Below are positions 20,292 to 58,503 of a stretch of DNA of 64,000 nucleotides, piece by piece. The DNA is taken from sequence record NC_029091.1, one strand, 5' to 3'. The stretch comes from Escherichia phage APCEc01. The stretch's first letter is position 1, and the number at the start of each line of letters is the position of its first letter. The notes beneath the pieces are model-generated. The model did not search any database. It was not told the origin of the DNA and saw nothing but the letters and a program-made list of their open reading frames with translations. The position numbers and the translations under genes are program-made.

Positions 20292-20635
20292 CCAAAATGT
20301 TGGCTTTAATAGTTGGCTTGGTTTCATTTAACGCTCTTGCTAATACTACATATACTGATGTAACGGAGTATACAAACAGAACGGCGTCTGATTACTGTGG
20401 TAAAAGTCAAGAGTGTAAAGTAGATTTTTCACAAAAATTGTTATATGCGTATAAAGACGGAGAAAAAGACGGGGCGTCTAGTAGGTTCAAGGCGTCTACC
20501 TTAATTAAAAGATACTATAAAAAATGGCAAATATTAGAATGCTCGGTGGCGGAACCTAAAGATAAGGCAGCATGCAATTCTATGGTGGACCGTCTAGTTG
20601 ACTCTTATAATAGAGGACTTGCAGCAAGTGATTAA
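20288..20635 (+). CDS. secreted/periplasmic hypothetical protein
   Basis: 115 aa with N-terminal signal peptide MTKMLALIVGLVSFNALA. Confidence 0.45.
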   Translation: MTKMLALIVGLVSFNALANTTYTDVTEYTNRTASDYCGKSQECKVDFSQKLLYAYKDGEKDGASSRFKASTLIKRYYKKWQILECSVAEPKDKAACNSMVDRLVDSYNRGLAASD

Positions 20636-21095
20636 AAACTATATCAAGGGCGATATTGTCGCCCTGTTTTCTAAAGGTAATAATATTGCTCATGGGTGTA
20701 ATTGTTTTCATACAATGGGCGCGGGTGTGGCAGGACAATTAGCAAAGGCTTATCCAAAAATTCTGGAAGCCGATAAACTTCAAACCGAATTCGGAGACGA
20801 GTCTAAACTCGGGACTTATTCGGTTTATGAAAAATATTTTAAGACCCATAAAGCTTATTGCTTTAATCTTTATACACAGTTTGAGCCGGGACCTAATTTT
20901 GAGTACTCTGCTTTAATGAATTGTATAATAGAATTAAATGAATTCGGAAAGAATAAGATAATAAAGCCTGTAATTTATATGCCAAGAATTGGTGCAGGTA
21001 TTGGTGGTGGAAACTGGGATGTCATCGAAGAGATTTTAGATACGTATTCTACTAAACTAGAAATTGTGATTGTTGATTGGGAACCGTTATTATGA
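20598..21095 (+). CDS. macro domain (ADP-ribose binding/processing) protein; start uncertain
   Basis: HGCNCFHTMGAGVAGQL and PRIGAGIGGGNWDVI match macro-domain glycine-rich motifs; no ATG near 5' end (TTG 20598 or GTG 20628). Confidence 0.55.
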   Translation: MTLIIEDLQQVIKNYIKGDIVALFSKGNNIAHGCNCFHTMGAGVAGQLAKAYPKILEADKLQTEFGDESKLGTYSVYEKYFKTHKAYCFNLYTQFEPGPNFEYSALMNCIIELNEFGKNKIIKPVIYMPRIGAGIGGGNWDVIEEILDTYSTKLEIVIVDWEPLL

Positions 21096-47927: not shown

Positions 47928-50639
47928 ATGAAAGAATTTTACTTAACGGTTGAACAGATTGGTGATTCAATTTTTGAACGTTACATCGATTCTAATGGCC
48001 GTGAACGTACTCGTGAAGTAGAATATAAACCATCACTGTTTGCTCATTGTCCAGAAAGTCAGGCTACGAAATATTTCGATATCTACGGTAAGCCGTGTAC
48101 TCGTAAGTTGTTCGCTAATATGCGTGATGCCTCCCAATGGATTAAACGCATGGAAGATATCGGACTTGAAGCACTTGGCATGGACGATTTCAAATTGGCG
48201 TATTTGTCTGACACTTATAACTATGAAATCAAATACGACCATACAAAAATTCGTGTGGCTAACTTCGACATCGAAGTAACATCTCCGGACGGGTTCCCTG
48301 AGCCGTCACAAGCAAAACATCCGATTGATGCTATCACCCATTATGACTCAATTGACGACAGGTTCTACGTATTTGATCTATTGAATTCTCCATATGGTAA
48401 TGTAGAAGAATGGTCTATTGAAATCGCTGCTAAGCTTCAAGAACAAGGCGGTGATGAAGTTCCATCTGAAATTATCGATAAAATCATTTATATGCCGTTC
48501 GATAACGAAAAAGAATTGTTGATGGAATATCTCAACTTCTGGCAACAGAAAACTCCTGTCATTTTGACTGGATGGAACGTTGAGTCATTTGATATTCCAT
48601 ATGTGTATAACCGAATCAAGAATATTTTTGGCGAATCTACTGCGAAACGTTTATCGCCACATCGTAAAACTCGTGTTAAAGTTATCGAAAACATGTATGG
48701 TTCTCGTGAAATCATTACATTGTTCGGTATCTCTGTTCTTGATTACATTGGCCTTTACAAAAAATTCTCTTTTACCAATCAACCGTCGTATTCTCTGGAT
48801 TACATTTCAGAATTTGAATTGAACGTTGGTAAACTGAAATATGACGGCCCTATTTCTAAGCTTCGTGAAAGCAATCACCAACGATATATTTCTTATAACA
48901 TTATCGACGTGTATCGTGTATTGCAAATTGATGCTAAGCGTCAGTTCATCAACTTGAGCTTGGACATGGGTTATTATGCTAAGATACAGATTCAATCTGT
49001 GTTTAGCCCAATTAAAACATGGGATGCTATTATTTTTAATAGCCTTAAAGAGCAGAACAAGGTGATTCCACAAGGTCGTTCTCACCCGGTTCAACCTTAT
49101 CCCGGCGCTTTTGTTAAGGAACCTATTCCAAATCGATACAAATATGTAATGAGTTTCGACCTTACATCTCTGTATCCAAGTATTATTCGCCAAGTGAATA
49201 TTAGCCCGGAAACAATAGCAGGAACGTTTAAAGTAGCTCCATTGCATGATTATATTAACGCAATCGCTGAACGTCCTTCAGATGTGTACAGTTGCTCTCC
49301 TAACGGCATGATGTATTATAAAGACCGTGATGGTGTAGTTCCAACTGAAATCACTAAGGTCTTTAATCAACGTAAAGAACATAAAGGTTACATGCTTGCA
49401 GCTCAACGTAATGGTGAAATAATTAAAGAGGCATTGCATAATCCTAATCTTTCTGTTGACGAACCATTAGATGTTGATTATCGTTTCGACTTCAGTGATG
49501 AGATTAAAGAAAAGATTAAAAAGTTGTCTGCTAAATCTCTTAATGAAATGTTGTTTAGAGCTCAACGTACTGAAGTTGCAGGTATGACCGCACAAATTAA
49601 CCGTAAATTGCTTATCAACTCACTTTATGGTGCACTTGGCAACGTTTGGTTCCGTTATTATGATTTGCGTAATGCTACTGCAATCACAACATTCGGGCAA
49701 ATGGCTTTACAGTGGATTGAACGTAAAGTTAATGAATATCTGAATGAAGTTTGTGGTACAGAAGGTGAAGCTTTCGTTCTATATGGTGATACAGACTCTA
49801 TTTACGTATCTGCTGATAAAATTATCGATAAGGTTGGTGAATCTAAATTCCGTGATACCAACCATTGGGTAGACTTCTTAGATAAGTTTGCACGTGAACG
49901 TATGGAACCTGCTATTGATAGAGGTTTCCGTGAAATGTGTGAATACATGAACAATAAACAACACTTAATGTTCATGGACCGAGAAGCTATCGCTGGTCCT
50001 CCGCTCGGTTCTAAAGGTATTGGTGGATTCTGGACTGGTAAGAAACGTTATGCATTAAACGTGTGGGATATGGAAGGAACCAGATACGCTGAGCCTAAAC
50101 TCAAAATCATGGGTCTAGAGACTCAGAAATCTTCGACCCCTAAAGCAGTACAGAAAGCTCTTAAAGAATGTATTCGTCGTATGCTTCAAGAAGGTGAAGA
50201 ATCATTACAAGAATATTTTAAAGAGTTTGAAAAAGAATTCCGTCAATTGAATTATATTAGCATCGCGTCGGTATCTTCTGCGAATAACATTGCTAAATAC
50301 GACGTAGGTGGATTCCCGGGTCCTAAATGCCCGTTCCATATTCGTGGAATTCTGACATATAACCGAGCTATCAAAGGTAATATTGATGCACCACAAGTTG
50401 TAGAAGGTGAAAAAGTATATGTTCTGCCTTTACGTGAAGGAAACCCATTCGGTGATAAATGTATCGCATGGCCTTCTGGTACTGAAATCACAGATTTAAT
50501 TAAAGACGATGTACTTCATTGGATGGACTACACTGTTCTCCTTGAGAAGACATTTATTAAACCACTTGAAGGATTCACATCAGCAGCTAAACTCGATTAC
50601 GAGAAGAAAGCATCTCTGTTCGATATGTTTGATTTTTGA
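47928..50639 (+). CDS. 43: DNA polymerase gp43 (family B, with 3'-5' exonuclease)
   Basis: 903 aa; MKEFYLTVEQIGDSIFERYIDSNGRERTREVEYKPSLFAHCPES...; exo motifs FDIEV and NVESFDIPYVY, pol motifs SLYPSII and YGDTDS; matches my memory of the RB69 polymerase. Confidence 0.97.
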   Translation: MKEFYLTVEQIGDSIFERYIDSNGRERTREVEYKPSLFAHCPESQATKYFDIYGKPCTRKLFANMRDASQWIKRMEDIGLEALGMDDFKLAYLSDTYNYEIKYDHTKIRVANFDIEVTSPDGFPEPSQAKHPIDAITHYDSIDDRFYVFDLLNSPYGNVEEWSIEIAAKLQEQGGDEVPSEIIDKIIYMPFDNEKELLMEYLNFWQQKTPVILTGWNVESFDIPYVYNRIKNIFGESTAKRLSPHRKTRVKVIENMYGSREIITLFGISVLDYIGLYKKFSFTNQPSYSLDYISEFELNVGKLKYDGPISKLRESNHQRYISYNIIDVYRVLQIDAKRQFINLSLDMGYYAKIQIQSVFSPIKTWDAIIFNSLKEQNKVIPQGRSHPVQPYPGAFVKEPIPNRYKYVMSFDLTSLYPSIIRQVNISPETIAGTFKVAPLHDYINAIAERPSDVYSCSPNGMMYYKDRDGVVPTEITKVFNQRKEHKGYMLAAQRNGEIIKEALHNPNLSVDEPLDVDYRFDFSDEIKEKIKKLSAKSLNEMLFRAQRTEVAGMTAQINRKLLINSLYGALGNVWFRYYDLRNATAITTFGQMALQWIERKVNEYLNEVCGTEGEAFVLYGDTDSIYVSADKIIDKVGESKFRDTNHWVDFLDKFARERMEPAIDRGFREMCEYMNNKQHLMFMDREAIAGPPLGSKGIGGFWTGKKRYALNVWDMEGTRYAEPKLKIMGLETQKSSTPKAVQKALKECIRRMLQEGEESLQEYFKEFEKEFRQLNYISIASVSSANNIAKYDVGGFPGPKCPFHIRGILTYNRAIKGNIDAPQVVEGEKVYVLPLREGNPFGDKCIAWPSGTEITDLIKDDVLHWMDYTVLLEKTFIKPLEGFTSAAKLDYEKKASLFDMFDF

Positions 50640-50679
50640 TATAATGCCAAGGACGGCCAACTAATTAAATGAGAGAAAT

Positions 50680-51315
50680 ATGAAAACTACTCCTATTACT
50701 ATCGCTATTGACGCAATCGTAAAACAAGCTTCATCTCTTGCCACTATGGCTAAAGTAATTAGTCAAAACCCTGCTCGTTATAATGCTATTCTAGAAACTC
50801 TTCGACGCCCTGGACTTAGTAATTATGAAAGCCGGGTAATTATTACAGGTGTTGGTAAGAATGCTAATATCGCAACTAAAGCTTCCGAGACTTTTGCTTC
50901 ACTAGGTATTCCTAGCATGTATTTGAACACCGGGCATTATTCTCATGGTGACGCAGGATTTATTGCGCCTAATGACGTGTTGATTCATATTAGTCGTTCT
51001 GGTAAAACTGAAGAAATGATAGGTGTTGCTAAACATCTTCGTATGATTCGTCCTCAGGTTAAACAGATTCTGTTACATTGTAACCCAGACATTCCACAAG
51101 AATACGAAGCTCTTTTTGATTATACGTTCTGTACCGGTATCGCGGTAGAAGTTGACGAGAACTCTTTAGCTCCGACTATGTCCACTACATTGTTGTTAGC
51201 GCTTATCGATACGTTTGCTATCAACCTTTCGTCTGAACGTGGATTTACCTCTAATGATTTCCTTAAGTTCCATCCAGGCGGTGCACTAGGTGCCATGTTA
51301 CGAGGCGAACAATGA
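50680..51315 (+). CDS. SIS-domain sugar-phosphate isomerase (KdsD/GutQ-like arabinose-5-phosphate isomerase candidate)
   Basis: 211 aa; SIS motifs ITGVGKNANIATKASETFASLGIP and IHISRSGKTEE; C-terminal FHPGGALGAML as in API enzymes; no CBS domains. Confidence 0.65.
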   Translation: MKTTPITIAIDAIVKQASSLATMAKVISQNPARYNAILETLRRPGLSNYESRVIITGVGKNANIATKASETFASLGIPSMYLNTGHYSHGDAGFIAPNDVLIHISRSGKTEEMIGVAKHLRMIRPQVKQILLHCNPDIPQEYEALFDYTFCTGIAVEVDENSLAPTMSTTLLLALIDTFAINLSSERGFTSNDFLKFHPGGALGAMLRGEQ

Positions 51316-51452
51316 AAGCAATAACAATAGGACTTTTACTATTGATGCTTGTCATGACTATCTACTGGAGCTTAACGGCTCCGGTAATGATTCCAACACT
51401 TGTAATTGGATGGATTATGATTGGACTACAAGCAAAGTATGAATGCTTTAAC
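51312..51452 (+). CDS. small hydrophobic membrane peptide (46 aa; possible Imm-like remnant)
   Basis: ATG 51312 overlaps upstream stop; MKAITIGLLLLMLVMTIYWSLTAPVMIPTLVIGWIMIGLQAKYECFN; below track size threshold. Confidence 0.4.
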
Positions 51453-51496
51453 TAGAATAGTGTACAATACTCCTACTTACCAATGAGGACTTCAAC

Positions 51497-53182
51497 ATGA
51501 AAAAAGCTGTTATTCTTGGTGCTGGACTGGCAACTCGTTTGTATCCAATAACGCATCATATTCCTAAGGTGCTTGTTAATTATAAACAAGACACTATTCT
51601 GAGCAATTTGTATACAATTTATTCTGACCTTGGCGCAGATGAAATTATTGTAGTAGTTCATTCAAAATTTGCTGAAACTGTTCGAGCTTATTGTGAGCAA
51701 GAAGGGTTCAATGTGACTATTCGTACAGTTGATGAAGCGTATGGTTCTGCTTATGCTCTTGCTAAATTACACAAAGATTTAGACGGCCATAATGTAATTG
51801 TTAACTGGTGTGATATTATTCCTGATTTTGGTTCATGGTCTTGGAATGTTAACGCAATCTATGTTAAGGGTGACGAATGTCGATATAATTTCGACGGTGA
51901 AAATATCACTAACGTAGGTTCAACAGGTGGTAATGTTGTAGGAATTTATCAGTTCAAAGACTGGGAATTCTATATGGGTTCTACCGATGAGGAAATTCAT
52001 GAATACTGCAAAGGACGTGATTTCGTAGAATTCCTTTACGGCAGCGCATTCAATAAATCAGAGCTTATGAATATAATTGATTTAGGTGATATGCCTAAAC
52101 TTGAAAAGGCTCATGAAGTTCGTGAACTTAATCGTAGTTTTAATGCAGTTGAAATTGGTGAAGAAACTGTAACTAAATTCGCATTAACCGAACAGGGTCG
52201 AGCTCTTCAGAAAGATGAGATTTCGTGGTATTTGAAAGTGAAATCAGATTCAGTTCCTCAGTTAGTTTCTGTTAATGAAAATAACTTTGAAATGGAACGC
52301 ATTAAAGGTAAGCCAGCATTTGAATATATTAAATCCAAATCAAGTCTTGCTCGTCCACAAATTGTTGATGCAATTTTAGATGCACTGAAATTCAGCACAG
52401 ACACTTATTTTGTAAGTCCTGAAACTGTTCGTCGTGATTTCACTAAAGAATTCTATACGAAAGTTATTGATCGTTGTGAAAGCATTCAACCGTTGATTGA
52501 TTCATTTGGTAAAATCACACATGTGAACTACACTAAGATTGGACGTCTGAAGCCAATGCTGAAACAAGCTTTAGAACACCTTATTCGGTATCATAACCGT
52601 TCTCAGGGACAGTACTCTGTTATTCACGGTGACCCGAACTTCAGTAATACTATGATTACTGATAACGGCGAAGTCAAGTTTATCGACCCTCGTGGATATT
52701 TTGGCGAAACCAAGATTTACGGGCCAAAATTGTATGATGAAGCTAAAGTGCTTTATGCTGTTTCAGGTTATGATGAATTCAATGCTAATCCGACCTGGGG
52801 GCAGTTTACTATTGATGAAACAACTTGTAATGTGACTATTAACATCAATCCATTAGTTTACAAATATGGAAAGATGAGTTCGTTTAACGAGTATCATCAT
52901 TTGGCAGTGGCAATTATCTGGATTGCATTAGGTGGTTATTTCAAGAATAATCCACTTAAAGCGGTAGCCGCATATTATAAAGGTATGGAACTTCTGACTA
53001 AGCAATTACGTAACATGGGCCGTGTACTTCAGGACGGCTCTATTAGTTATGACGTAGCAGAACCTGTAACGGCTACTCTGATTACAAAAAATCCTGGTAA
53101 ATGGGTACTAACTGATAAAGAAACTGGTGTTTCCTATCGTCCAATCGGTGGCGATATCACTCATCAATGGGAACGAATCTAA
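51497..53182 (+). CDS. bifunctional sugar-1-phosphate nucleotidyltransferase / anomeric sugar kinase (APH-ChoK fold)
   Basis: 561 aa; N-terminal AVILGAGLATRLYPITHHIPKVLV pyrophosphorylase signature; C-terminal IHGDPNFSNTMITDNGEVKFIDPRGYFG matches the HxDxxxxN catalytic loop and Dxx metal motif of APH/choline-kinase-like kinases. Confidence 0.7.
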   Translation: MKKAVILGAGLATRLYPITHHIPKVLVNYKQDTILSNLYTIYSDLGADEIIVVVHSKFAETVRAYCEQEGFNVTIRTVDEAYGSAYALAKLHKDLDGHNVIVNWCDIIPDFGSWSWNVNAIYVKGDECRYNFDGENITNVGSTGGNVVGIYQFKDWEFYMGSTDEEIHEYCKGRDFVEFLYGSAFNKSELMNIIDLGDMPKLEKAHEVRELNRSFNAVEIGEETVTKFALTEQGRALQKDEISWYLKVKSDSVPQLVSVNENNFEMERIKGKPAFEYIKSKSSLARPQIVDAILDALKFSTDTYFVSPETVRRDFTKEFYTKVIDRCESIQPLIDSFGKITHVNYTKIGRLKPMLKQALEHLIRYHNRSQGQYSVIHGDPNFSNTMITDNGEVKFIDPRGYFGETKIYGPKLYDEAKVLYAVSGYDEFNANPTWGQFTIDETTCNVTININPLVYKYGKMSSFNEYHHLAVAIIWIALGGYFKNNPLKAVAAYYKGMELLTKQLRNMGRVLQDGSISYDVAEPVTATLITKNPGKWVLTDKETGVSYRPIGGDITHQWERI

Positions 53183-53568
53183 TGCACCGTGTAGAAAACA
53201 TGCTTAATCTTTGTTTTGATGTCGATGATTGTATAACAGAGTGGAATAACAATCGTGATTACGTGAACTTCAAACCTGACGTCGAAATGGTGTCTGCCAT
53301 TAATGCCCTGTATGATGCAGGGCATACCATAACGCTTTACACTGCTCGCGGTATGAAGTCAGTAGGTCCTGGTCGTATAGCAATTGACATTCTCCCAAGT
53401 CTTATTCAGAACTTGGCAAACATTGGCTTGAAGTACCATAATTTGCTAACACATAAACCAGTATATGATTGGATTATCGACGACAAAGCTATGCGTCCTG
53501 ACGAATTCAAAGCTCTTATGAATAAAGGCGAATTCGAAACATTTAAATCATATAAACCGAATCTATAA
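53182..53568 (+). CDS. HAD-superfamily phosphatase
   Basis: ATG 53182 overlapping upstream stop (TAATG); 128 aa; motif I DVDDCIT near N-terminus, TARG and DDK motifs downstream. Confidence 0.6.
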   Translation: MHRVENMLNLCFDVDDCITEWNNNRDYVNFKPDVEMVSAINALYDAGHTITLYTARGMKSVGPGRIAIDILPSLIQNLANIGLKYHNLLTHKPVYDWIIDDKAMRPDEFKALMNKGEFETFKSYKPNL

Positions 53569-53628: not shown

Positions 53629-54789
53629 ATGAATACTTTTAAAATCGGAACGAATTTTGATTTAGCTCTTCTTGATAAAATCGTAGAGCTCAATAAAACT
53701 TATCCTAATAGCTTGATAAATGAAGTATACGGCTCTACAAGAGAAATGGCTTTTGTAGCAGCCAGACCTGATTTTAGGCTTCCTGACGTTGACAAAAAGA
53801 TGTTAGAAGATTACGTTAAACGTTGTAACGAATTAGGTATTTGCTTTAACTATACACTCAACACGATAAATCCTGGTTCAAAAAGAGAACTAGTTGAGTG
53901 GAAGAAGAAAGCTATTCAGGATTATGTTCAGTATCTTTGGTCAATAGGCGTATGGCGTATTACTATCGCTAACCCTGTTGTTATGGAAATTGTTCGTGAA
54001 GTCAATAAAGACATTGAGATTGAAGTTTCAACAATTCTACATGTCGATGCTGTAACTCAAATCAAATACTTGCATGACCAATATAATATCAAAAAGGTCT
54101 GCTGTGGAATTCATAAGAACCGTTCAGTTTCTTTCCTGAAGCGTGCAGCAGAGTTTTGCAATAAGAACAATATAATATTTGAAGTTCTTGTAAATGAGTT
54201 CTGTTCTAATGCTGGTAAAGGGTATACAACACATTGTAGCTATCGTGACTCTTGCTATATTTTCCATAGTACTGATGTTACAGCTGATGATGCTAAATCC
54301 TTAAACGGATATCCTATGCAGCACTGTATTAAAGCTCGTGATACAGACCCATTTAACTGGTTGAGAACTCGTTTTGTTCGTCCTCAAGATTTGAAACTTT
54401 ATAATGATATTGGTATCACTCAATTCAAAGTTTCAGGACGTACAGGTAGCACAGACTACATTTTGAAAGTTCTTGAAGCATACGCTTCTGAAAAGTTTGA
54501 AGGTAATTTGTTAGAACTGTGGAAGCCTTTAGAGACTATTTTCACTCTTGAAAACGAAACTGAGTTTTCACATACAGTAAATATTGAAACCTCTTTGTTA
54601 GATGGCTTTTTAGAAAAAAGGTGGTTCAGACATCCAGATTTCGATTGTGCTAATGAAATCTGCGGGACGACGTGTACATATTGTGAAAGATATTATAAAC
54701 GTCAATTATCTAAAAACGGGTTAGCAGAAAACTCTATATCTATTATTGATATAACTAACTCTGATGACGCTTTGAGGTACCCGGAATGA
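53629..54789 (+). CDS. Cys-cluster enzyme of unknown function (possible U32-like/TIM-barrel or transferase)
   Basis: 386 aa; internal EFCSNAGKGYTTHCSYRDSCY and C-terminal CANEICGTTCTYCERYY Cys clusters; family not confidently recognised. Confidence 0.5.
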   Translation: MNTFKIGTNFDLALLDKIVELNKTYPNSLINEVYGSTREMAFVAARPDFRLPDVDKKMLEDYVKRCNELGICFNYTLNTINPGSKRELVEWKKKAIQDYVQYLWSIGVWRITIANPVVMEIVREVNKDIEIEVSTILHVDAVTQIKYLHDQYNIKKVCCGIHKNRSVSFLKRAAEFCNKNNIIFEVLVNEFCSNAGKGYTTHCSYRDSCYIFHSTDVTADDAKSLNGYPMQHCIKARDTDPFNWLRTRFVRPQDLKLYNDIGITQFKVSGRTGSTDYILKVLEAYASEKFEGNLLELWKPLETIFTLENETEFSHTVNIETSLLDGFLEKRWFRHPDFDCANEICGTTCTYCERYYKRQLSKNGLAENSISIIDITNSDDALRYPE

Positions 54790-55025
54790 TTTCTAGAAAA
54801 ACTTTTAACCACCAACTTAATGAAGAGATTTTGACTATGAAACTGAACACTAATGAACAAATTCTTAAAAAGGCCCATCAGGGCCTTTTTGAAACTAAAG
54901 CGGCTAAAGTGATTAAAGAACCTGTTCAATTAGAATACTACGCTGATGCATTTCTTCATAGTGTTCTTGGAAGTATCGATGCCGAAGCTTTACGTTATAT
55001 CAATATTGCCAAGAAATTCAAATAA
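54786..55025 (+). CDS. hypothetical protein
   Basis: 79 aa; ATGA overlap with upstream gene. Confidence 0.45.
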   Translation: MISRKTFNHQLNEEILTMKLNTNEQILKKAHQGLFETKAAKVIKEPVQLEYYADAFLHSVLGSIDAEALRYINIAKKFK

Positions 55026-55066: not shown

Positions 55067-55783
55067 ATGGGAAAACATAACACAATGAAATATATCAAAG
55101 CCGCAGATTTTCAAACCGCATTTAAAGCAGTCAATCGTGAAATTTTAGAAAACCCGGAATTCGTAACTGATTCTCGTATTGGACGTTGTAATGAAATTGG
55201 GTCTATGACAGTAGTTGTTGACACTCCATCATCATTCAAAATGACCGACCCACGTATTAACCGCATCTCTTATGAATATGCCGAAGACTTCTGGAAGTTT
55301 ATGATTTCTGGTGGTACCAACGCAGAAGAAGCGTTTAAGGCATATCCTAATGTCGCTAAATTTATTTCTAAACCAAAATCAGATGTTTTGCCGGCGAACT
55401 TCAACACTTTCTATGGTCCTCGCATTGCGGCTCAATTACCAGCTCTTCTAAAAGAACTTAAAGAGAAGCCTAACTCCCGAAGAGTTGTGTTCCAAATTCT
55501 AGAAAGTTCTGATCAGGCTTTGCTTGATTCGGACGAAACGCTTGAATATCCATGTACTGACTCAGTGACTTATTATATTCGTGATGGTAAGCTTTATACC
55601 CACTGTCATATGCGTTCTCAGAACTGTGCTGTTGTTATGCAGTTGGATTTTTATCTCCAAGGAAAATTACTTCATTATATCGCTAACGAATGTGGTGTAG
55701 AAGTTGGTGATTATACTCATACCATGGTAAGTGCCCATGTGTTTGAACGTGATTTTGATTATGTTAAAGGATTCCTTGACTAA
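55067..55783 (+). CDS. 42: dCMP hydroxymethylase gp42 (thymidylate-synthase fold)
   Basis: 238 aa; TS-family landmarks SRRVVFQ, nucleophile PCTD, MRSQNCAVVMQLDF, SAHVF; only TS-like gene here; position between 43 and uvsX as in T4. Confidence 0.7.
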   Translation: MGKHNTMKYIKAADFQTAFKAVNREILENPEFVTDSRIGRCNEIGSMTVVVDTPSSFKMTDPRINRISYEYAEDFWKFMISGGTNAEEAFKAYPNVAKFISKPKSDVLPANFNTFYGPRIAAQLPALLKELKEKPNSRRVVFQILESSDQALLDSDETLEYPCTDSVTYYIRDGKLYTHCHMRSQNCAVVMQLDFYLQGKLLHYIANECGVEVGDYTHTMVSAHVFERDFDYVKGFLD

Positions 55784-56682
55784 TGGCTATTTTCCGCGTA
55801 CCTATCTTGAGTATGCGGTCTTATGAAACTGGACAGTATGCTATCCTTAAGGATGGCAACTTCCAACTTCATTTGCACCGTGCTAATCCGGGTGATGTGA
55901 TTACATATCCACGTAATGCATCTGATATTAAAGAATGCGAACGTCTTTTTCCAGAATTTAAGTTTGTTCCATTATGGTATAAAGATAACGCGTATAACAC
56001 TCGTAAATATTTCTGGTCTGAAAATGAATTTGTGGTTGATTCATTAATTGCTTATTATGACTGTGATTTTCTAATCACAGATATCACTGGATATGACGGC
56101 GCTTTTGATGTGGAATTCAATTTCAATATCACTGCAGACCCTAATAAACCACGTTTTTATATTGACGAATTCTTAAAAACCGATATGTTGTCGGTTAATC
56201 GTTCACTTCAAACTACTGTGTTGAATGAACGTCAAAAAGAAGTGCTGGTTAACGCTGGTGCAGATGGTAATAAGATTATCGTAACGCAGAAAGTTATACG
56301 TCCTTCCATCATGCAGCGTCTTGTAGGTGATTTGGCTCCTATTCATCTAGATGGTATTTTTCATCCATTTCGAATTAGTGACCCATGCTATCGTTTTGAA
56401 CAAGTTGTTGAATGCGCAATTCAATTAGGTCAACCGCTTTATATAACCGATCCAAATAATAGCTTCGACAGAAATAAGTATCCTGAAGAAGCGTTGATTC
56501 GAATTTTTAAACCAACTAAAACTGAGTACTATCAAATTCTTAAAGGACGTCCGAAAATTCAATATTTCGAAAATCCTGAAGAAGTATTCCATCCAGGTCT
56601 TGGTGAGTTCATCTACTTTAATGCTTTAATTTCTTCGCCGTATAATATACCTAAATATGAAGATGTCGTAATCGAGGAATAA
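55783..56682 (+). CDS. hypothetical protein occupying the beta-glucosyltransferase position (candidate modification enzyme)
   Basis: 299 aa; no resemblance to remembered T4 beta-gt; ATGG overlap with gene 42 stop. Confidence 0.5.
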   Translation: MAIFRVPILSMRSYETGQYAILKDGNFQLHLHRANPGDVITYPRNASDIKECERLFPEFKFVPLWYKDNAYNTRKYFWSENEFVVDSLIAYYDCDFLITDITGYDGAFDVEFNFNITADPNKPRFYIDEFLKTDMLSVNRSLQTTVLNERQKEVLVNAGADGNKIIVTQKVIRPSIMQRLVGDLAPIHLDGIFHPFRISDPCYRFEQVVECAIQLGQPLYITDPNNSFDRNKYPEEALIRIFKPTKTEYYQILKGRPKIQYFENPEEVFHPGLGEFIYFNALISSPYNIPKYEDVVIEE

Positions 56683-56683
56683 A

Positions 56684-57232
56684 ATGGCTAAAATTATTTT
56701 AGTAGATGGCCCAGATAATGCTGGTAAAACAACTTTCATTAATGTCATAATGGAAATTAGTGAAAGATATGTAAAGATTGATTTCCCTAAACGAACAGTT
56801 GATGGGCGTTTCGATGTTAAGTCTCGAAATGAAGTTGGCTGTTTCGAAACGATGTTGAATTATTTAGACCCTACTAAGATTTATCTGTTAGACCGTGGAT
56901 ATATTAGTAACTGGGTTTATGGACGTATTCGACAAGATGCGGACTCGATTCTTGACGTTTATGAACAGGACTATGTTCGTCTTTGCCAAAACCATGATGT
57001 GTTCACAATTATTTTAACACGTAACGAAATGACTGAAAGTTTTGAAGACGACCTTATTACTTTGTCTTCATTCGGTTTTAATACAGTCATTTCACATTTT
57101 GAAGAGTTTGCAATTCATAACAAAATCCAAACGTATCAATTACTTAATCATGATGGTGCTAACAAAGTTATAGGATTTAATGCAAGCGAACGTAATTATT
57201 TGATTACAGAAATTATCAAATGGGCTCGTTAA
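56684..57232 (+). CDS. P-loop nucleotide/nucleoside kinase-like protein
   Basis: 182 aa; Walker A ILVDGPDNAGKTT, DRGY segment; resembles dNMP/thymidylate-kinase-like P-loop kinases. Confidence 0.5.
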   Translation: MAKIILVDGPDNAGKTTFINVIMEISERYVKIDFPKRTVDGRFDVKSRNEVGCFETMLNYLDPTKIYLLDRGYISNWVYGRIRQDADSILDVYEQDYVRLCQNHDVFTIILTRNEMTESFEDDLITLSSFGFNTVISHFEEFAIHNKIQTYQLLNHDGANKVIGFNASERNYLITEIIKWAR

Positions 57233-57330: not shown

Positions 57331-58503
57331 ATGTCTGATTTAAAATCTCGTCTGATTAAAGCTTCTACTTCTAAAATGACTGCAGACTTGACTAAGTCTA
57401 AGCTGTTTAATAATCGTGATGAAGTCCCTACTCGTATTCCGATGTTGAATATTGCACTAGGTGGTGCACTGAATGCTGGGTTGCAATCAGGCTTAACTAT
57501 TTTTGCTGCTCCTTCTAAACACTTTAAAACATTGTTTGGGCTGACCATGGTTGCAGCATATATGAAGAAATATAAAGATGCAATCTGTTTGTTTTATGAC
57601 TCAGAATTCGGTGCTTCAGAATCTTATTTTCGTTCAATGGGTGTTGATTTAGACCGTGTAGTTCATACTCCGATTCAATCTGTCGAACAACTTAAAGTTG
57701 ATATGACTAATCAGCTTGACGCGATTGAACGCGGTGATAAAGTTATTATCTTTATCGATTCAATCGGTAATACTGCATCTAAGAAAGAAACCGAAGATGC
57801 GTTGAACGAGAAAGTTGTAGGTGATATGTCTCGTGCTAAGGCACTTAAATCTCTGTTCCGCATTGTGACCCCGTATCTGACTATTAAAGATATTCCGTGT
57901 GTTGCAATTAACCATACCGCAATGGAAATCGGCGGACTATATCCTAAAGAGATTATGGGTGGTGGTACAGGTATTCTTTACTCTGCTAACACTGTATTCT
58001 TTATCTCTAAACGTCAGGTTAAAGAAGGTACAGAATTGACCGGTTATGACTTCACGTTGAAAGCAGAAAAATCTCGTACAGTTAAAGAGAAATCTACTTT
58101 CCCGATCACGGTTAATTTTGATGGCGGTATTGATCCATTCAGTGGCTTGTTAGAAATGGCAACTGAAATTGGATTTGTTGTTAAGCCTAAAGCTGGTTGG
58201 TATGCTCGTGAATTCCTTGACGAAGAAACAGGTGAAATGATTCGTGAAGAGAAATCGTGGCGTGCTAAAGCTACTGATTGTGTAGAATTCTGGGGTCCGT
58301 TGTTTAAACACAAACCTTTCCGTGACGCAATTGAAACTAAATATAAACTAGGTGCTATCTCTTCTATTAAAGAAGTTGATGACGCTGTTAATGACCTTAT
58401 TAATTGCAAAGCAACAACTAAAGTTCCGGTTAAAACTTCTGATGCTCCGTCTGCAGCAGATATAGAAAACGACCTTGACGAAATGGAAGATTTCGATGAA
58501 TAA
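57331..58503 (+). CDS. uvsX: recombinase UvsX (RecA-like)
   Basis: 390 aa; MSDLKSRLIKASTSKMTADLTKSKLFNNRDEVPTRIPMLNIALGG...; Walker A GPSKHFKT; matches T4 UvsX. Confidence 0.93.
   Translation: MSDLKSRLIKASTSKMTADLTKSKLFNNRDEVPTRIPMLNIALGGALNAGLQSGLTIFAAPSKHFKTLFGLTMVAAYMKKYKDAICLFYDSEFGASESYFRSMGVDLDRVVHTPIQSVEQLKVDMTNQLDAIERGDKVIIFIDSIGNTASKKETEDALNEKVVGDMSRAKALKSLFRIVTPYLTIKDIPCVAINHTAMEIGGLYPKEIMGGGTGILYSANTVFFISKRQVKEGTELTGYDFTLKAEKSRTVKEKSTFPITVNFDGGIDPFSGLLEMATEIGFVVKPKAGWYAREFLDEETGEMIREEKSWRAKATDCVEFWGPLFKHKPFRDAIETKYKLGAISSIKEVDDAVNDLINCKATTKVPVKTSDAPSAADIENDLDEMEDFDE

Follow-up and report, generated by a model that had tools for sequence, protein, structure and literature searches.

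Directly downstream of its DNA polymerase gene, Escherichia phage APCEc01 carries a gene for a small protein of the SIS family, which raises the question of which sugar phosphate such an enzyme would handle in the infected cell, and to what end. The gene was analyzed in a window of 64,000 nucleotides of the phage genome (NC_029091.1), to which all coordinates refer; the features described below lie on its plus strand unless stated otherwise. The original prediction, made from the letters of the window and its translated open reading frames, had regarded the product as a minimal arabinose-5-phosphate isomerase (API) and had suggested that a branch of pentose phosphate metabolism is tapped for DNA modification.

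The Isomerase Gene and Its Position

The open reading frame (ORF) runs from an ATG to a TGA codon at 50680..51315 and encodes 211 residues. It is the orthologue of ORF055c of phage RB69, whose product gp55 (NP_861745.1) is 97% identical to the protein studied here (204/210 residues). Since 180 database proteins match that protein at E ≤ 1e-5, with identities down to 34-38% among the best 120, a chance origin of the ORF can be dismissed, and the gene is real. The homologues among these best 120 are mostly 195-262 residues long, with two shorter ones that come from short contigs; contigs of about 165-175 kb, a size usual for T4-like phages, carry the others. By tblastn the gene is present in 274 phage records, many of which annotate it as 'arabinose 5-phosphate isomerase'; PHROG 5670, which bears the same name, is matched from end to end (1.5e-116).

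The window belongs to an RB69-like T-even phage (Mosigvirus). Between positions 50600 and 55100 its DNA shares 99.1% identity with that of Shigella phage JK42, and 95-99% with that of about 150 further phages of Escherichia and Shigella, RB69 relatives of the genus Mosigvirus included. Upstream of the isomerase gene lies gene 43 (47928..50639), whose 903-residue product was identified as DNA polymerase (gp43) from its ORF and from the annotation of the syntenic gene in JK45 and RB69; regA and gene 62 precede it, as in the replication gene block of T-even phages. The gene thus does sit beside the polymerase gene, as had been noted from the sequence, 40 nt separating the stop codon of gene 43 from the isomerase start on the same strand. 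A Shine-Dalgarno-like GAGAG, read from the sequence at 50671..50675, precedes the isomerase ATG by 4 nt and would serve as its ribosome-binding signal. No terminator-like site was found by a consensus scan in the gap between the two genes, and the promoter signal was not above chance in such a scan, with 33 promoter-like sites against 40.5 expected. Inspected by eye, the TATAAT at 50640-50645 is preceded neither by an acceptable -35 hexamer nor by a MotA box. From its position, the isomerase gene may be part of an 'early operon' in which it would be co-transcribed with gene 43. Immediately downstream, an ORF for a hydrophobic, two-segment peptide of 47 residues (51312..51455), as judged from its hydropathy, starts with an ATG that overlaps the isomerase stop codon (ATGA). 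This peptide matches PHROG 3610 over its full length (7e-27), and a counterpart with 60% identity occupies the same position in Winklervirus.

Domain Composition and Family Membership

The protein harbors a single SIS domain (Pfam PF01380) at residues 51-181 (50830..51222), which covers positions 6-130 of the 131 of the profile at E=4e-10 and, with 40 bits, exceeds the gathering score of 25. No CBS domain was detected in it with Pfam. The box FHPGGALG, at residues 197-204 (51268..51291) by sequence and alignment, holds His198, which aligns with His193 of KdsD; only seven more residues follow, ending in AMLRGEQ and the stop codon, and the protein ends 13 residues past H198. When the protein is aligned with KdsD of E. 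coli, this C-terminus falls where the CBS pair of the latter starts; the KdsD sequence used agrees with the alignment to the structure 2xhz. The description of the product as a stand-alone SIS protein devoid of CBS domains, which stops right after the FHPGGALG box, is therefore accurate.

The three best NCBIfam models are TIGR00393 (KpsF/GutQ; 5e-32), KdsD (2e-30), and GutQ (2e-22). Their full-length cut-offs were not reached (111.5 against 203.7, 106.2 against 505, and 79.7 against 481 bits, respectively), because the models include the CBS pair and the SIS half alone was matched, for instance at positions 2-153 of 268. These scores below the cut-offs and the lack of a CBS pair indicate that the phage protein is not an equivalog of KdsD or GutQ. 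The AgaS family was matched at E=0.0017, and no model for GmhA, the enzyme that the original prediction had named as a competing assignment, was among the NCBIfam matches at E ≤ 0.01. When the sequences of the PDB were searched with phmmer, the only entries matched were 3etn (7e-25), 5uqi (2e-22), 2xhz (the SIS domain of KdsD; 1e-18), and 3fxa.

Modeled Fold and Active Site

An AF2 model of the isomerase, built on 41 homologues, has a pLDDT of 95.4 and a pTM of 0.91. The modeled fold is of the alpha/beta type, a five-stranded sheet whose strands (residues 53-57, 79-83, 100-104, 128-133, and 148-151) alternate with helices. With this model, Foldseek retrieved 207 PDB chains at E ≤ 0.001, the best 50 of which are all SIS-domain proteins; the nine best chains stem from 2xhz, 3etn, 5uqi, and 3fxa only, and 2xhz superimposes with a TM-score of 0.91 on the target and an rmsd of 1.7 A. 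The E-values of the API entries are separated from those of the SIS domains of RpiR and MurR by more than three orders of magnitude. GmhA (5lu7) comes at rank 42, with 14% identity and an rmsd of 5.6.

Five residues of KdsD, K59, H88, E111, E152, and H193, are taken here to form the API active site, and the alignment to these catalytic residues that had been proposed as a check places K60, H89, E112, E157, and H198 of the phage protein opposite them. The codons of the first four lie at 50857..50859 (Lys60, in a GxGK motif), 50944..50946 (His89, in an HGD motif), 51013..51015 (Glu112), and 51148..51150 (Glu157). All five residues are invariant in 41 phage homologues with identities of 34-100%, as well as in an alignment of 19 sequences that contains KdsD. 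Within the FHPGGALG box, H198, P199, G201, L203, and G204 are invariant, and 5uqi and 3fxa align with the phage protein in this box as well. The 2xhz chain has an Ala at KdsD position 59, consistent with this entry being, as we assume, the K59A mutant of KdsD.

Sequence and modeled fold thus support the view that the phage protein would be a SIS enzyme of the KpsF/GutQ/KdsD type, as originally proposed, its NCBIfam, PDB sequence, and Foldseek neighbors all being of the API type, and that it would be nearest to APIs rather than to other SIS enzymes. The interconversion of D-ribulose 5-phosphate (Ru5P) and D-arabinose 5-phosphate (A5P) is, in consequence, its predicted reaction. The main alternative is that the protein isomerizes another sugar phosphate, be it a heptose, a hexose, or a different pentose, and that its product is not A5P. 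Several aldose-ketose isomerizations are found among SIS domains, so that the Pfam match alone leaves the substrate open, and the characterized APIs are just 28-33% identical to the phage protein. However, the closest relatives in both sequence and fold are all APIs, the models for GmhA, GlmS, MurQ, and AgaS are not close, the five API active-site residues are all invariant, and the sugar on RB69 DNA is D-arabinofuranose (Lee et al., 2026; PMC13326640). A GmhA or other SIS enzyme assignment was rejected on the NCBIfam and Foldseek results, and a substrate other than a precursor of A5P appears quite improbable.

Comparison with Known Isomerases

The closest known counterparts of the isomerase are gp55 of RB69, from which it differs by six substitutions only, its Mosigvirus orthologues, and gp83 of phage DLP3. 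As in APCEc01, the gene for RB69 gp55 is located directly 3' of gene 43 and ahead of the same module.

Among cellular enzymes, c3406 of E. coli CFT073 (5uqi; 198 residues, A5P-bound) and the Bacteroides fragilis enzyme (3etn; 220 residues) likewise consist of a single SIS domain without CBS domains, and they have the HGD and HPGG/HHGG histidine motifs in common with the phage isomerase, to which they are nevertheless just 28-31% identical. Judged by sequence and modeled fold, the phage protein would fall among these single-domain, CBS-less APIs. The two bacterial enzymes reportedly act in capsule or Kdo-type pathways; the phage gene, unlike theirs, lies within a DNA-modification module. E. coli KdsD and GutQ (TIGR00393) share the homologous catalytic SIS domain, with all five active-site positions of KdsD kept in the phage protein, but both KdsD (328 residues) and GutQ (321 residues) carry a C-terminal tandem CBS pair that the latter lacks. 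The sedoheptulose-7-phosphate isomerase GmhA has the SIS fold in common with the phage isomerase and is otherwise distant.

The Downstream Module and Its Distribution

The isomerase gene heads a co-directional module whose gene order is that of RB69 gp45-gp56. After the gene for the small hydrophobic peptide comes that of a bifunctional sugar kinase/nucleotidyltransferase of 561 residues (51497..53182), which resembles AfhE and corresponds to RB69 gp52:53; it was assigned with Pfam and NCBIfam, having an N-terminal NTP_transferase domain (Pfam), weak matches to kinase folds at residues 308-409, and matches to sugar-1-phosphate nucleotidyltransferases of NCBIfam. The next gene (53167..53568) codes for a HAD-type phosphatase of 133 residues that is AfhF-like and corresponds to RB69 gp51, as indicated by NCBIfam TIGR01689 (4e-13) and by a DVDD motif in the translation; the name 'phosphoheptose isomerase' that this protein bears in databases is wrong. 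It is followed by a gene for a protein of the Peptidase_U32 family (53629..54789; 386 residues; Pfam U32, 7e-11), the counterpart of RB69 gp50, and by a 79-residue ORF (54786..55025) restricted to Mosigvirus. Further downstream are the genes for a ThyA-like 5-hydroxy-dCMP synthase, the RB69 gp48 orthologue (55067..55783; Pfam Thymidylat_synt, 2e-15; synteny with RB69p048), for a putative DNA arabinosyltransferase of 299 residues corresponding to RB69 gp46:47 (55783..56682), and for a nucleotide kinase of 182 residues that is thymidylate-kinase-like and corresponds to RB69 gp45 (56684..57232). The putative arabinosyltransferase has no Pfam match. It was placed by synteny and by Table 1 of Lee et al. 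(2026; PMC13326640), and the nucleotide kinase by the same two sources and the RB69 annotation. The gene after the module is uvsX (57331..58503). In the RB69 record, the kinase/nucleotidyltransferase (ORF052c/053c) and the glycosyltransferase (ORF046c/047c) are each split, which has been ascribed to sequencing errors (Lee et al., 2026; PMC13326640), whereas here each is one intact ORF.

The linkage of the genes for the isomerase, the kinase/nucleotidyltransferase, the HAD phosphatase, and the ThyA-like protein is kept in Mosigvirus, Winklervirus, Gualtarvirus, Lazarusvirus (Acinetobacter phages), and Jiangsuvirus (Pseudomonas phages). This conserved neighborhood also bears on the possibility that the protein is a true API that acts as an auxiliary metabolic enzyme, feeding or perturbing the synthesis of Kdo and lipopolysaccharide (LPS) or of capsule in the host rather than DNA modification. 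The cellular homologues KdsD, GutQ, KpsF, and c3406 do work in Kdo and capsule pathways, and the RB69 annotation reads 'similar to bacterial polysialic acid capsular expression protein GutQ'. Nonetheless, neither a Kdo-8-phosphate synthase nor a CMP-Kdo synthetase adjoins the phage gene, which in five genera lies beside genes for arabinose activation and 5-hydroxycytosine formation, and there is no obvious gain for a lytic phage in the LPS synthesis of its host; such a function is very improbable. It is hardly credible that the protein is a non-catalytic sensor of sugar phosphates, akin to the SIS domains of the RpiR, MurR, and HexR regulators, because RpiR-family regulators, although present among the weaker NCBIfam and Foldseek matches, come three to four orders of magnitude behind the APIs, and the phage protein is a bare SIS domain without a DNA-binding domain in which the API catalytic residues are all invariant.

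The Klebsiella phage PhiKpNIH-6 (Marfavirus) retains the other module genes without an isomerase gene at the locus, and its kinase/nucleotidyltransferase is only 44% identical. E. coli makes A5P itself by means of KdsD and GutQ. Given this host supply and the existence of a module without an isomerase gene at this locus, the phage API may be dispensable, or may merely raise the flux toward A5P.

The gene for the U32 protein has a distribution of its own. It was found by tblastn in 220 phage records, with at least 80% identity in every one of them, and no other protein of the module is as conserved as its product, which has 83-86% identity across genera as against 74% for the isomerase. In the tblastn summary, the named hosts of the U32 records are genera of the Enterobacterales, together with Shewanella phage Thanatos, while Acinetobacter accounts for 57 of the 274 isomerase records and is absent from the named U32 hosts. 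Two phages of aerobic hosts were inspected at this position, Acinetobacter phage Apostate and Pseudomonas phage PspYZU05, and in both the HAD phosphatase gene is directly followed by the ThyA-like gene, the U32 and chorismate mutase genes being missing from an otherwise conserved module. In Winklervirus, Gualtarvirus, and Marfavirus, a gene for a type II chorismate mutase is located between the U32 and ThyA-like genes. The product of Virsaitis27 ORF37 matches Pfam CM_2 at 1.7e-11, and the chorismate mutase was detected by tblastn in 54 phage records. The 79-residue ORF of the APCEc01 module sits in the chorismate mutase slot of these sister genera. Its homologues, frequently truncated, occur in Mosigvirus only, and neither BLASTP nor Pfam at E ≤ 10 nor a small HMM indicated that it is a diverged chorismate mutase. 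Elsewhere in the window, a tblastn match to chorismate mutase at 20897-21064 on the minus strand (E=0.005) was dismissed as a chance one, antisense to a Macro-domain gene.

Proposed Role of the Isomerase in DNA Arabinosylation

Arabinose was found on the DNA of RB69, and a role of the isomerase in DNA arabinosylation was first proposed, in a study that also described a Butyrivibrio protein in which a kinase/nucleotidyltransferase is fused to a SIS domain (Thomas et al., 2018; PMC6024577). The DNA of RB69 and DLP3 has since been found to contain mono-, di-, and tri-D-arabinofuranosyl-5-hydroxycytosine (Lee et al., 2026; PMC13326640), and the same modifications occur in the Mosigvirus NP, whose cluster includes a 'predicted isomerase' (2026; PMC13390438). 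Arabinosyl-5-hydroxycytosine was demonstrated by LC-MS and NMR in both RB69 and NP (PMC13326640, PMC13390438). It was shown experimentally that the ThyA-like gp48 of RB69 is a 5-hydroxy-dCMP synthase linked to O2 and flavin (Lee et al., 2026; PMC13326640). As cited in the same paper, AfhE of HY126 combines the activities of an A5P kinase and a UDP-arabinose pyrophosphorylase, and AfhF is a phosphatase (He et al., 2026, via PMC13326640); for related phages, the paper refers to Mahler et al. (2025). The step from Ru5P to D-arabinofuranose 5-phosphate has been given to gp55 from structure comparisons, with the same PDB matches as those obtained here, and gp55 is not marked 'confirmed experimentally' in Table 1 of that work (Lee et al., 2026; PMC13326640). 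The published route leads from Ru5P through D-arabinose 5-phosphate and UDP-D-arabinofuranose to arabinosyl-5-hydroxycytosine in DNA (PMC13326640).

Applied to the APCEc01 module, this scheme takes its DNA chemistry, its ThyA-like hydroxylase, and its AfhE and AfhF activities from the literature, and the isomerase reaction is the predicted one. The isomerase would most likely draw Ru5P from the pentose phosphate pathway of the host and convert it to A5P, onto whose C1 the bifunctional kinase/uridylyltransferase would transfer a phosphate. The HAD phosphatase would then take off the 5-phosphate, and the transferase domain of the bifunctional protein would make UDP-D-arabinofuranose. The ThyA-like 5-hydroxy-dCMP synthase of the same module would be the source of 5-hydroxycytosine, to which the phage glycosyltransferases would attach arabinose in the phage DNA, and the arabinosylated DNA would be resistant to host nucleases. 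The ORF therefore very probably codes for a CBS-less, single-domain D-arabinose-5-phosphate isomerase (EC 5.3.1.13 type) that is orthologous to RB69 gp55 and would feed DNA arabinosylation. The suggestion that pentose phosphate is tapped for DNA modification agrees with the published model for RB69 gp55 (PMC13326640).

A Possible Role of the U32 Protein in 5-Hydroxycytosine Formation

The U32 gene of the module has been labeled merely as a 'sugar or heterocycle reductase' (Lee et al., 2026; PMC13326640). The U32 family comprises RlhA, which forms 5-hydroxycytidine 2501 of 23S rRNA, together with TrhP and UbiU/V. All of them belong to the Fe-S proteins, and prephenate, which chorismate mutase produces, is needed for the hydroxylations that rely on them (PMC5727448, PMC10990095). 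A search of PDB sequences with the phage U32 protein gave no match even at E ≤ 1. The protein has cysteines at positions 192, 203, 209, and 233, and a C-terminal CX4CX3CX2C motif at residues 340-352. C192 aligns with C169 of RlhA, and C209 is the sole cysteine that is invariant across the alignment; a Gly stands at the position of RlhA C176, with C203 nearby. From the sequence, C233 and the cysteines of the CX4CX3CX2C motif are further candidate ligands.

Family membership, gene neighborhood, and host distribution together suggest that the U32 protein might be a hydroxylase that depends on prephenate and not on oxygen, and that makes 5-hydroxycytosine, or helps to make it, where the O2- and flavin-dependent ThyA-like synthase fails, for instance in the anaerobic gut. 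Its strong conservation and its cysteines fit this reading. We advance this tentatively, with more doubt than confidence. As the published ThyA-like hydroxylase uses O2, a prephenate route would explain how phages of facultative anaerobes could obtain 5-hydroxycytosine without oxygen. In APCEc01, where the chorismate mutase slot is taken by the unrelated 79-residue ORF, the phage would draw its prephenate from PheA and TyrA of the host. Our literature search returned no paper that joins U32 proteins, chorismate mutase, phages, and DNA modification, and the idea may already have been published.

Implications

Both the isomerase gene and the pathway it would serve are already known, having been proposed in 2018, worked out in 2025-2026, and in part tested biochemically. 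The agreement of the original prediction with that work indicates that a reading of the letters alone can arrive at a correct biological conclusion. The window adds intact frames for two genes of the module that are broken in the RB69 reference record. If the proposal for the U32 protein is true, it would be the first hydroxylase of the U32 family to act on a DNA precursor, and it would account for the presence of 5-hydroxycytosine in the DNA of gut phages without oxygen.

Organization of the isomerase region

A perfect TATAAT lies directly 3' of the stop codon of gene 43 (window 50640..50645; this and all window features below are on the plus strand), 35 nt from the ATG of the isomerase gene; 5' of it, neither a -35 hexamer nor a MotA box could be made out convincingly by eye. 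The isomerase stop codon overlaps, as ATGA, the start codon of an ORF (51312..51455) whose 47-aa product has two hydrophobic segments. This product belongs to PHROG 3610 and is conserved at the same position in Winklervirus with 60% identity; the RB69 record has a shorter frame, ORF054c, at this site. It is a putative small membrane peptide within the sugar-nucleotide operon.

The kinase/NTP-transferase (561 aa; 51497..53182) and the glycosyltransferase (299 aa; 55783..56682) are each encoded by one intact ORF in the window, whereas their counterparts in the RB69 reference record (L002 8095-9781 and 4598-5498) are each in two pieces, ORF052c/053c and ORF046c/047c, respectively. The RB69 splits have been published as sequencing errors (PMC13326640), an account with which the intact frames are consistent. 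Between these two genes, an AfhF-like HAD-type phosphatase (53167..53568) harbors a DVDD motif and matches the NCBIfam capsule biosynthesis phosphatase model (4e-13). Both PHROG 1238 and the RefSeq records of RB69, JK45, and Apostate name this protein 'phosphoheptose isomerase', which looks like a propagated misannotation.

Elsewhere in the window, a 165-aa ORF (20598..21095) has a Macro domain (Pfam 2e-06, above the cut-off); a tblastn match antisense to it was dismissed as due to chance.

Variation of the module among phages

The Providencia phage PSTRCR_127 has an extra 355-aa ORF (L006 1759-2826) between the isomerase and kinase/NTP-transferase genes, without counterpart in the window. The Klebsiella phage PhiKpNIH-6, a Marfavirus (L007 2575-8322), retains a kinase/NTP-transferase gene (44% identity) together with genes for HAD, kinase, U32, chorismate mutase, ThyA-like, and glycosyltransferase proteins, but the SIS isomerase gene is not present 3' of its polymerase gene. 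Either arabinose-5-phosphate is supplied by the host isomerases KdsD/GutQ in this phage, or another sugar is used.

In the position of chorismate mutase in sister genera, the window has a 79-aa ORF (54786..55025) with no detectable similarity to that enzyme. Its homologues are found in Mosigvirus only (82-99% identity), and many database copies are shortened to 47-58 aa.

A candidate cytosine hydroxylase

The U32 'peptidase' family protein (53629..54789) is the most conserved of the proteins of the arabinosylation module, with 83-86% identity across genera (slots in compared loci: L003 4992-6502, L006 5115-6848, L007 5329-6731). A type II chorismate mutase gene follows the U32 gene in Winklervirus, Gualtarvirus, and Marfavirus, and neither gene is found at the corresponding slot in the inspected Acinetobacter and Pseudomonas phages (L008 11353-12440, L009 11276-12657). 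This conservation, the adjacency to chorismate mutase, and the joint absence of both genes suggest by analogy with RlhA, TrhP, and UbiU/V that the U32 protein may be a prephenate-dependent, O2-independent cytosine hydroxylase.
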